Assembly: GCA_965197425.1 (NCBI GenBank)
Contig: CBDANC010000014.1
Coordinates: forward strand, 352,001 to 416,000
From: Bdellovibrionales bacterium
GTDB lineage: Bacteria; Bdellovibrionota; Bdellovibrionia; Bdellovibrionales; JAUICD01
Direction: 5' to 3'
Length of the DNA stretch: 64,000 nucleotides
Part shown: piece after piece, positions 4,468-9,000 of the stretch
How the letters are laid out: every line of letters starts with the position of its first letter
Numbering within the stretch: the first letter of the stretch is position 1
The notes under the pieces: model-generated
Seen by the model: the letters and a program-made list of their open reading frames with translations, nothing else
Told to the model about the DNA's origin: nothing
Databases searched by the model: none
Program-made: the position numbers and the translations under genes

Positions 4468-7400
4468 TCAGTGTTGAGTTCTCAGCGCTTTTGCAGTTAT
4501 TGCATTGGAAACTGTCGAGAGATCTAAAGGAGCAACACCTAAATCATGATATTCAGAAACATACTTGATTGTATATTGAAGTGACTCAGTTGCATCTACA
4601 AAGGTACCGTACTTGTAGGGTCCACCAAGTCTAATTGACCTATCAGGATCTGGATCACTGTTAAAACAGTATCCGTAGCCCAGAGAAGTCCAGATGCCCA
4701 CAGAAGTGTCTTCGTTACCACAAAGCTCGGCTCTTAAAATTTCTCTGTCAGCACTAAATAAAGGAATAAACTGATCAAGTCTGCCATAAGACATTATAGT
4801 CGAAATTGGTTCATCACTAAACTGTCCTCCATATCCATACCCAAAACCAGTAGCAGTAGTACCAGGACGTGTTAATGATTCTGGATTTTTCCTATTGATT
4901 TCCACCAACGAGTCTATATCATGGCTCAGACCTAAAACATGCCCAATTTCATGTGCCATGAGGGTACTGACAAAGGAGGTTCCGACTTTAGTCTGGATAT
5001 CAGAAATACCATTAAGATCAAAAAAATTATGGCGAGTGCCTACAGTTGCATAAGACTCCCATCTAGGAACTGCATAATAACTGGTTTCTCCTGCTGGTGG
5101 CAGGAGAGATGCGTATGAATTATTGTCGGGGATCATTGAAATAACTATATCAGCATGATGTTTTTTACGGATACTTGGAATCAGCTCTGAAATTGCTACT
5201 TGGTCACCGTAAAGATGTCCCCATCCAAGACGCCCTTCTCTTTTCCTCGCAATAACCAAATTATCTAAAGAAGGAAGATCGCAAAGCAAATATTGCTTGT
5301 ATTCAGAAAAGAAACTAATGTTCGAAGCTCTAAACTCAACATTTACACCGGATTCTTGAAACACCTTGCTTACGCGTTCAAGAAGGGTGTTTTTAAGGTA
5401 GCCTCTCCAATCACCACTAGCTTTCTCTAAATAAGAGTCGGAAATAACAAACGCAACATCAATAATATATCTAGTAGCAGGATCTGCTTTTTCGTACTGA
5501 GGTGTTTCGTCGTCATTTGCACCGTCAAAAGCAATGTTGTCTGGCAAGTGTGAAAAGGATTGAGCTATATCTGTTCCACAAGCAAAGTGATCCAGCACCT
5601 CTTCATCATTATATCGATCATGATACTGATCATAACTTGCAGCAGACTGCCTGTATTCCAAATCACAAGAAGTCGCATTGTAGTACCTAGCACCAAATTG
5701 CCCATGGTAAAATGTTGTTGTGTCTTCTAAATAAGAATCAACAGAACTACTATTTGTAATCTTAGATACATCAGACCTTCTAGCAAAATTTTTAACTATA
5801 ATATTGTAATGTTCATAGTAGCCATATGCTAGTTGATCATAAATCTTTCCCTCCCATGTCCTAGGATCATATGGAGACTCTATGGTAATAATGGTCTTAC
5901 CACTTGTGTGACTTACTGACACTAAATCTAATCCCATAGGCCCATTTGTGCTCACATAATCGACATCATCATGAGTCTTTCCAGAAATCTCAATCATTTC
6001 TAGAATATCTTCCTTGGTAATCTCCTGCCATTCACCAGAGTTGGATAAATATACAACCTCTGAATCAAAATAAATCTTTATAACTTCTGTCGGATCCCAG
6101 GTTGATTCAATCATCTCCCTCCCTCCTCTTGGAGTAAAGGTATACACTACCTGAGGAATCCTAATGCAATCTCTTGTACCATCATCATAAGTTAACTCAA
6201 AATATCCAGAAGCATCCTCTTCACACAAAGTGCTAATATTAGGGGTTGAAAATGAAGAGTATTCTTTGTTTATTGATGCAAGGTAGTCTTCTGTGTTGGT
6301 AGCATCTAAGACTTTCGAGACGTTTAAAGAACTGGCATAGTTCTTTACCTTTACTGAATAACTTCCAGCAGGATAACTTGAAATTGGAGTTAAGATAAAA
6401 AATGAGTTCTCATCTTCTTCAACTCCAGCTTCTATGCTAAATCTAAATGTACTAGTTAACAGATTTGTTCCGTTTGCATTTAACTCTATCATATTTCTTG
6501 CAAAAGCAGCTGTAAGACCTTCATATCTATCAGAATCTATATAACTTACTCTCCCATCAAAGGTTACTTTTATAGAGTGATCTGATATTGTAGATGTGTC
6601 TGTTGTTACATTACCTTCACTATCAAGATAACTAATAGTAGGGGAGATAAGCTTAATACAGTCTCCTGCAGTATCATCATAAGTTAACTCAAAATAACCC
6701 TCATCTCCTCTACCACAAGGAGTTTGGATATTAAAAGATTGTTCTTGGTTAATTATAGTTAGATAACTTTGGGTATTATTACTTGCTAAAATTAAGTCTG
6801 CATCATCAGTTTTTGCATAACCACCTACAGACAGTGTATACATGCCAAGCTCATATCTATTATCATTAGGAGGGTTTATAGTAATAACTGTGCTTGAATT
6901 ACCAGCGGAGTTTCCGCTAGATTCTGTGACTGATACTTGATCTTCACCAATAGGACCATCTACACTTACAAGATCAACACCTGCGCTGTTAGTAATTTCA
7001 ACCATTTCTAAGATATCTGATTTAGTTAGACTACTAGATGTGGATACTCCACCCGTGGCGGTACCATCTCCTATATACACTATCTTAGAATCAAACTCTA
7101 TTTGTATTATTGTAGCAGGATCTCCATTATGTTCAGATGAGCTTTCTTCATTTGATGTAAAGGTAAAGCTTACCTGAGGAAGTTTTATACAACTGGTAGT
7201 CAAATTATCATTGGTTAGCTCAAAATAGCCAGGTTCATTATTAGTACAAGAAGTTGGTATTACAGGAACTGTAAAAGAAGATAGAGAGTTGGACATATTA
7301 CTAATTGTATTAAGATACTGAGCTTTATTAGTACTAGTAGCTATCTTAGATATATCAGCCTTTTTAGCATAATTACTTACACCAACTACATAATCTCCAG

Positions 7401-9000: not shown

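Follow-up and report, generated by a model that had tools for sequence, protein, structure and literature searches.

An 18 bp hairpin element found in a Bdellovibrionales genome constitutes a real and new family of repeats, of a kind that is known but unexplained, and it provides a testable lead to its mechanism. Copies of the element were analysed from a stretch of 64 kb (hereafter the window) to the whole genome that holds it (G000; 1.60 Mb, approx. 35% GC, a 15-contig assembly), with a sister species (G001; median protein identity 67.5%) as the reference. The claim that had opened the question, namely a non-autonomous, ultra-small mobile element inserted in frame and without target duplication, is supported.

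Copies in the window and their host genes

The hairpin motif has seven exact matches in the window, against 0.01 expected by chance; all lie where the first-pass annotation had placed them, strands included, within a single ORF of 1510 amino acids. An eighth, more diverged copy was detected in the other approximately 55 kb of the window, where none had been seen before. The features are as follows (−4 is the base four positions 5′ of the insertion point):

4468..9000, − strand: host gene, encoding a repeat-containing protein of 1510 amino acids whose C-terminal domain is an M12/reprolysin-like peptidase
6900..6917, + strand: 18 bp unit, C7:G17 stem variant; G at −4; ungapped empty sites in paralogues
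7040..7057, − strand: 18 bp unit; C at −4; empty in the repeats of the C13 paralogue
7892..7909, − strand: 18 bp unit, T10:A14 variant; C at −4; cleanly empty counterparts in a repeat of the same gene and in three paralogues
8373..8390, + strand: 18 bp unit, T10:A14 variant; A at −4; empty in three paralogues
8462..8479, − strand: 18 bp unit, C7:G17 variant; C at −4; common to two paralogues, empty in a third
8623..8640, + strand: 18 bp unit; T at −4; three units there in the C12 paralogue, none in the C6 paralogue
8955..8972, + strand: 18 bp unit in the n-region of the signal peptide; C at −4; the C15 paralogue has two decayed units here
12141..12158, − strand: eighth, more diverged unit, in frame in a 455-amino-acid ORF (11224–12591); C at −4

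The last of these ORFs, which we take from its sequence to be a dehydrogenase E2-type gene, shows a 6-residue gap at the matching position in G001. For the copy at 8955, G001 gave only a weak match, and the closest paralogue is the one with the two decayed units. Removal of this copy had been said to restore a canonical signal peptide; it does yield a shorter signal-peptide-like N-terminus, but, judged by eye, the insert leaves the hydrophobic core unbroken. Contigs of run X1, which probably represents the sample of origin and does not count as independent biological support, cover five of the eight window copies without differences, which makes an artefact of assembly improbable. A marginal, possibly decayed unit with a score at noise level (15.0) lies immediately 5′ of the protease gene, at 9029–9046 (− strand).

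Structure of the unit

The suspicion that the boundary was off by one was justified: the unit starts one base further 5′, at the pyrimidine. It is exactly 18 bp long and comprises a 5 nt head (YACNR), a 5 bp stem (positions 6–10 with 14–18) and a loop GTN, and the predicted fold of the four single copies that were folded agrees with the stem and the 3 nt loop first described. Three stem pairs co-vary among 128 units: 6:18 (GC 100, CG 14, GT 10), 7:17 (TA 94, CG 25) and 10:14 (AT 94, TA 16, GC 5, CG 4), while 8:16 and 9:15 are GC in 118 units each. Pairs 7:17 and 10:14 give the two highest mutual-information values, a level reached in none of 300 permutations, which bears out the covariation noticed earlier. 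Near-fixed bases are A2, C3, G8, G9, G11 and T12. The likeness to unusually stable GNA triloops is only a partial argument, as the third loop base is A in only 82 of 114 units; the middle T is fixed in 113 of them. A closed dumbbell with a 1:5 pair is compatible with the data, but the 1:5 covariation is not significant (p = 0.064). From this pattern we infer that the fold plus a few bases would be what a copy needs in order to spread.

Extent and origin of the family

The whole-genome scan that had been recommended reveals a genome-wide family in G000, with 61 exact matches to the motif pattern, 104 with at most one mismatch, and 126 hits in a profile search versus 1–4 in three shuffles. These hits were grouped into 125 units in 82 loci (56 single, 14 double, 7 triple and 5 quadruple). 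Before flanks were counted, we dropped four hits whose G001 orthologue shows no gap (C14:210648, C14:254658, C15:300593 and C15:389253), the low-scoring C13:129833 and six paralogous duplicates, leaving 71 loci and 114 units. A survey of indels then revealed subfamily B, in which the outer stem pair is flipped to C:G; with its addition, G000 holds 128 units at 79 independent loci. A possible third variant is found at C6:46008, where a 6-residue insertion relative to G001 corresponds to an 18-mer that resembles the unit but has an A:T outer pair.

The element is spread over five contigs and 45 genes, 28 of which have a single-copy G001 homologue at at least 55% identity. Glycine dehydrogenase and topoisomerase I itself are among the genes hit; others, named by reading their sequences, are presumably tRNA synthetases, fumarase, citrate synthase and GTPases. 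The protease family of the window, with 67 matches in G001, is native to the genus. The earlier proposal that the element had been active in a donor genome from which the protease gene came is accordingly rejected: a family spread across so many genes, 28 of them single-copy and shared with G001, is native to this lineage and not the relic of one donor gene.

Outside G000, the element was not retrieved, in scans from which very close genomes may be missing. G001 gave three profile hits at a score of at least 15, i.e. the shuffle level; 40 relatives gave one stray match, and counts in 300 other genomes of the order were near those of a reversed-pattern control, none above chance. A search with the junction in 185,579 genomes returned one match. 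Viral sequences gave 23 loci, all single matches save one 45 bp tandem, and none of the 35 metagenomic loci resembles the G000 element; no RNA holder of the motif was listed. Two genomes were considered as carriers and rejected: G203, whose 11 matches all lie in one 6 kb stretch, and G201, whose 20 scattered, GC-rich matches were read as chance.

Both species harbour other repeats. A second, modular intergenic repeat of G000 (window approx. 33700–33900) consists of modules of approximately 33 bp, also duplicated, one of which has 54 hits in G000 and none in G001; its 66 bp pair occurs in frame in several four-helix-bundle genes, and the copy at C12:93995 hosts an 18 bp unit. G001 has its own high-copy repeats, with top 16-mers (up to 43 copies) unlike those of G000. 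Two G000 contigs may be foreign to the bin: C9, with a PF13843 transposase of eukaryote-like type, and C10, with a phage-like look.

Evidence for precise insertion

Exact in-frame insertion had been claimed from empty sites, and such sites, ungapped, were found in G000 paralogues for six of the seven copies of the protease gene; the one described for the copy at 7892 is clean. A run-X2 contig shows an 18-base gap there, and a contig of run X3, from another study, carries a unit variant at the same site; contigs of run X4, also from another study, contain two net +18 gaps, possibly representing paralogues. At the DNA level, removal of 18n bases leaves an ungapped empty site in 36 of 82 loci. 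Protein-level comparison of the 70 coding loci with G001 gave 19 exact gaps of 6n residues and 33 gaps of other sizes, many in divergent alignments, with 17 loci outside the alignment and one without a homologue. Across 831 orthologue pairs, insertions of 6, 12 and 18 residues number 22, 8 and 3 in G000 versus 3, 0 and 0 in G001; 9, 5 and 3 of those in G000 belong by score to family A, and two more 12-mers to subfamily B. The insert peptide of glycine dehydrogenase was absent from all 120 homologues at the three sites checked. As first reported, target duplication can be dismissed: direct matches do not exceed chance length and the net insert is 18n.

Seventy of 82 loci lie in ORFs, which make up 88.5% of the genome; this is about the coding share and not the coding-region enrichment that had been put forward as a check. 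Reading frames fit random insertion followed by stop-filtering (the stop-prone frame was used 0 times versus 3.7 expected), with no support for frame selection beyond stop avoidance (p = 0.16). No bias was seen towards the transcribed strand (35 : 31) or the replication strand (28 : 26 where skew exceeds 0.05, a soft test as the skew is weak). Loci near gene starts are in excess (27 versus 15.9 expected; p = 0.008, a value that ignores clustering), which may merely reflect tolerant N-termini.

Arrays, clustering and target rule

Units form head-to-tail arrays at 26 of 71 loci, and units within an array are seldom the same: only 3 of 65 within-array pairs are identical, compensatory-pair differences occur in 10 of the 26 arrays, and units of one array differ at 2.6 positions on average versus 3.9 for distant units. 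Such unlike units with compensatory differences fit separate insertions rather than slippage; no age polarity was detected within arrays (p = 0.41). The loci themselves are clustered, with 26 gaps below 1 kb versus 3.0 expected, in both orientations (15 : 11), and rare alleles are shared locally (position 17: 26 versus 9.3 expected within 15 kb).

A single base dominates the target. Of the 79 left flanks, 59 have C at −4 (p = 2e-28 for a C content of 17.7%) and 20 do not; the mirror position on the opposite strand is G in only 11 of 79. Among the 59 sites with C(−4), position −5 is T in 28, A in 25, G in 6 and C in none, i.e. A/T in 53. Over all sites, C is nearly missing at −5, and G is scarce from −3 to +1 and enriched at −8 (25/79). 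At the cut, −1 is T in 24/79 and +1 is A in 27/79. Of 22 empty homologous sites, 15 likewise have C(−4). The 3′ end of the unit repeats this layout: position 15 is a C that falls at −4, and position 11 a G that falls at −8. Only in the true register, which was established on other grounds (the conserved pyrimidine at the 5′ end and the empty sites), is C(−4) found at both cuts (54/71 and 68/71). Since the unit end thus carries the C(−4) of the target, the arrays are accounted for. The eight left flank bases resemble the unit end (3.3 matches versus 2.0 expected), and no allele-specific match indicative of guide pairing was found between unit and flank, only −4 being strong.

Search for a mobilising enzyme

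The first-pass annotation had pointed to Y1/RAYT and IS110-type enzymes, none of which was matched in G000. No Y1_Tnp domain was found (the control was positive in 6 of 14 genomes, and the assembly may be incomplete), nor any IS110 or RVT_1 reverse transcriptase match. Tyrosine recombinases (PF00589) were absent from both G000 and G001, with a control positive in 14 of 14 genomes, and no XerC/D was found. The sole GIY-YIG match is a 612-amino-acid ORF shared with G001. A Pfam scan of 227 of the 241 G000 ORFs without a good G001 match revealed no HUH enzyme and no reverse transcriptase; it returned DDE transposases, a PD-(D/E)XK protein, restriction/defence genes and four-helix bundles. The latter (PF05635) number 19 in G000, 14 in G002, 19 in G004 and 0 in G001 and G003; as G002 and G004 are both without the element, these genes were rejected as a helper. 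Tandem repeats of approximately 8 bp, short and uneven, flank them in G000 (e.g. C14:346127–346420).

The target rule recalls a host enzyme. According to published work, bacterial topoisomerase I cuts four bases after a C (PMC3467081, PMC9352719, PMC9960139), which it selects via R169/R173/Y177 (PMC3467081). Its in vivo motif is described as AT-rich with one conserved C (core TCNTTA/T), the enzyme binding the 5′ end and leaving a 3′-OH, with a preference of E. coli TopA for a TA step at the cut (PMC9352719). The insertion sites share C(−4) in an AT-rich context with this signature, but not the TA step. G000 and G001 each encode one type IA topoisomerase, 72% identical to each other. That of G000 is closest to mycobacterial TopA among solved structures, and its R153/R157/Y161 align with the three C-reading residues. 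The G000 topA gene (C13:19591–22101) holds a unit in its C-terminal region and has a two-unit array just upstream (C13:19530–21768 region).

Comparison with known systems

The element works like a small dispersed repeat (SDR) or a miniature Rickettsia palindromic element (RPE), and does not qualify as a REP, a MITE or an IS200/IS605 derivative. The Nostoc SDRs were reportedly described by Elhai et al. in 2008, and we know of no mobiliser for them. Later papers present SDRs as repeats of some 20 bp, dispersed, tandem in varying copy number and possibly mobile (PMC2884548), and SDR5 as precisely inserted into HIP1, between bases 3 and 4 (PMC4390886). The G000 element shares with them dispersal, variable tandem copy number and precise insertion, here seen as filled/empty polymorphism; it belongs to another lineage, is 18 bp long and has a measured one-base C(−4) rule common to target and unit end. 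The earlier claim that it is smaller than its precedents hence holds only narrowly. RPEs, which also insert in frame in unrelated genes (PMC10969869), are approximately 150 bp long, as opposed to one 18 bp hairpin.

Group 3 REPs of Marinomonas, which belong to the REP/RAYT (TnpAREP) system, have a critical T in the loop and a 5 bp stem separated by two bases from a short tag on its 5′ side (PMC8266576). The G000 unit resembles them in its short 5′ head, perfect 5 bp stem and conserved loop T, but differs in having no GTAG tag, no CT/CA rule and no RAYT that was found in the genome, in being mostly intragenic and in forming head-to-tail arrays; the few occurrences of GTAG span certain array junctions on the reverse strand, and subfamily B has none. 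MITEs, of 70–300 bp with terminal inverted repeats (PMC3733652), contrast with an 18 bp element with asymmetric ends. Non-autonomous IS200/IS605 derivatives share the absence of target duplication and a determinant that lies on the 5′ side of the cut, in the target as well as at the end of the element; the G000 element has one hairpin instead of two ends, no TnpA that we could find, and a one-base rule in place of a tetra- or pentanucleotide target recognised by guide pairing. IS200/IS605 elements show an orientation bias relative to replication; no strand bias was seen here, in what the weak skew makes a soft test.

Possible routes of transposition

Read from sequence alone, the mechanism that we tentatively prefer, as a close call, is a strand transfer by TopA that would move the element without a transposase. 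TopA would cut one strand at both junctions of the unit and remain attached to the 18-mer through its 5′ end, and the 18-mer would be excised and re-joined as single-stranded DNA. At a nearby site nicked by TopA, the 3′-OH of the target would attack the bond between TopA and the 18-mer, and the 3′-OH of the 18-mer would attack the second bond, both joints requiring a C in the −4 pocket of the enzyme. The resulting 18 nt loop would be fixed by replication, while the other strand of the donor would retain its copy. Each new copy would recreate the target at its 3′ end and thereby give rise to arrays, and the length of 18 would preserve the reading frame, so that copies could persist in genes unless they bring a stop. 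Two TopA-linked 5′ ends swapping 3′-OH partners would explain the absence of duplication, the fixed length, insertion on either strand, the C(−4) of both joints and the short range of the hops. The chemistry (5′-phosphotyrosine and 3′-OH) is that of topoisomerase I. TopA adducts can probably be transferred to a free 3′-OH in vitro. Against this reading, the motif match is dominated by one base, with 20 exceptions in 79 and no TA step; TopA does not account for G(−8) or for the near-fixed A2, C3, G11 and T12, which have the look of bases touched by a protein that reads the hairpin; TopA acts on single strands, but the end C (position 15) is base-paired within the stem; and G001, despite its similar TopA, is element-free. 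In the open literature, from which subscription journals are largely missing, we found no paper showing such an intermolecular transfer, nor any description of this element or of TopA mobilising a short repeat.

Alternatively, a dedicated transposase of HUH type (Y1/RAYT-like) may have moved the unit in a peel-and-paste cycle, reading the hairpin loop and using the same determinant at unit end and target; its gene would since have been lost or would lie on DNA that was not assembled. The 5′-phosphotyrosine chemistry and the absence of duplication would be the same, the head, stem and fixed T12 recall the Marinomonas repeats, and a 15-contig assembly leaves room for a missing gene; yet with no Y1_Tnp match, no GTAG tag or CT/CA rule at the cut, no allele-specific unit–flank matching and no replication-strand bias (the soft test above), we regard this enzyme as rather unlikely. 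Strong clustering and local rare alleles would also follow from template switching, whereby the 3′ end of a nicked or stalled strand pairs weakly with sequence upstream of a nearby copy, a polymerase copies 18 bases, the new hairpin releases the strand and the strand returns, TopA possibly supplying only the nick or the final joint. The resemblance of the left flank to the unit end speaks for such priming; however, it is concentrated at −4 and −8 rather than at −1 to −3, where priming would take place, and is unrelated to the allele that the unit carries. As exact 18-base ends at many unrelated sites are moreover hard to obtain by priming, we consider this route improbable. An RNA copy reverse-transcribed into nicks would suit the precise length, and hairpin covariation fits RNA as well, but the lack of an RVT_1 match, of an orientation bias to transcription and of any Rfam family over two array-rich loci makes it highly improbable. 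Finally, a non-mobile origin, as a protein-binding motif or a slippage minisatellite, might be suggested by the arrays and by the greater likeness of units within them; near-identical neighbours would then be expected of slippage, which is not what the arrays contain, filled and empty sites differ by exactly 18n bases, and the excess of 6-, 12- and 18-residue insertions is specific to G000. Already refuted by the empty sites, this explanation retains next to no credibility.

Biological meaning

How repeats of 20 bp move has been an open question since the Nostoc SDRs. Here, a measured target rule, common to the element's own end, matches a universal and purifiable host enzyme. Going by these sequence patterns, it is possible, although we hold it as somewhat doubtful, that the element is an 18 nt DNA parasite for which the essential topoisomerase I of the host serves as transposase. 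It would then have no dedicated enzyme anywhere, be of minimal or nearly minimal size and place six-residue inserts into core proteins. By analogy, other tiny orphan repeats might have moved in this way; C(−4) would also be found at the SDR5 site in HIP1 if that palindrome is read on its other strand. If the TopA route is true, mobile DNA without an enzyme of its own, as well as small in-frame inserts in proteins, could arise through topoisomerase I. Should the link to TopA fail, the G000 lineage still offers a well-documented, lineage-specific burst of an 18 bp element into 45 genes.
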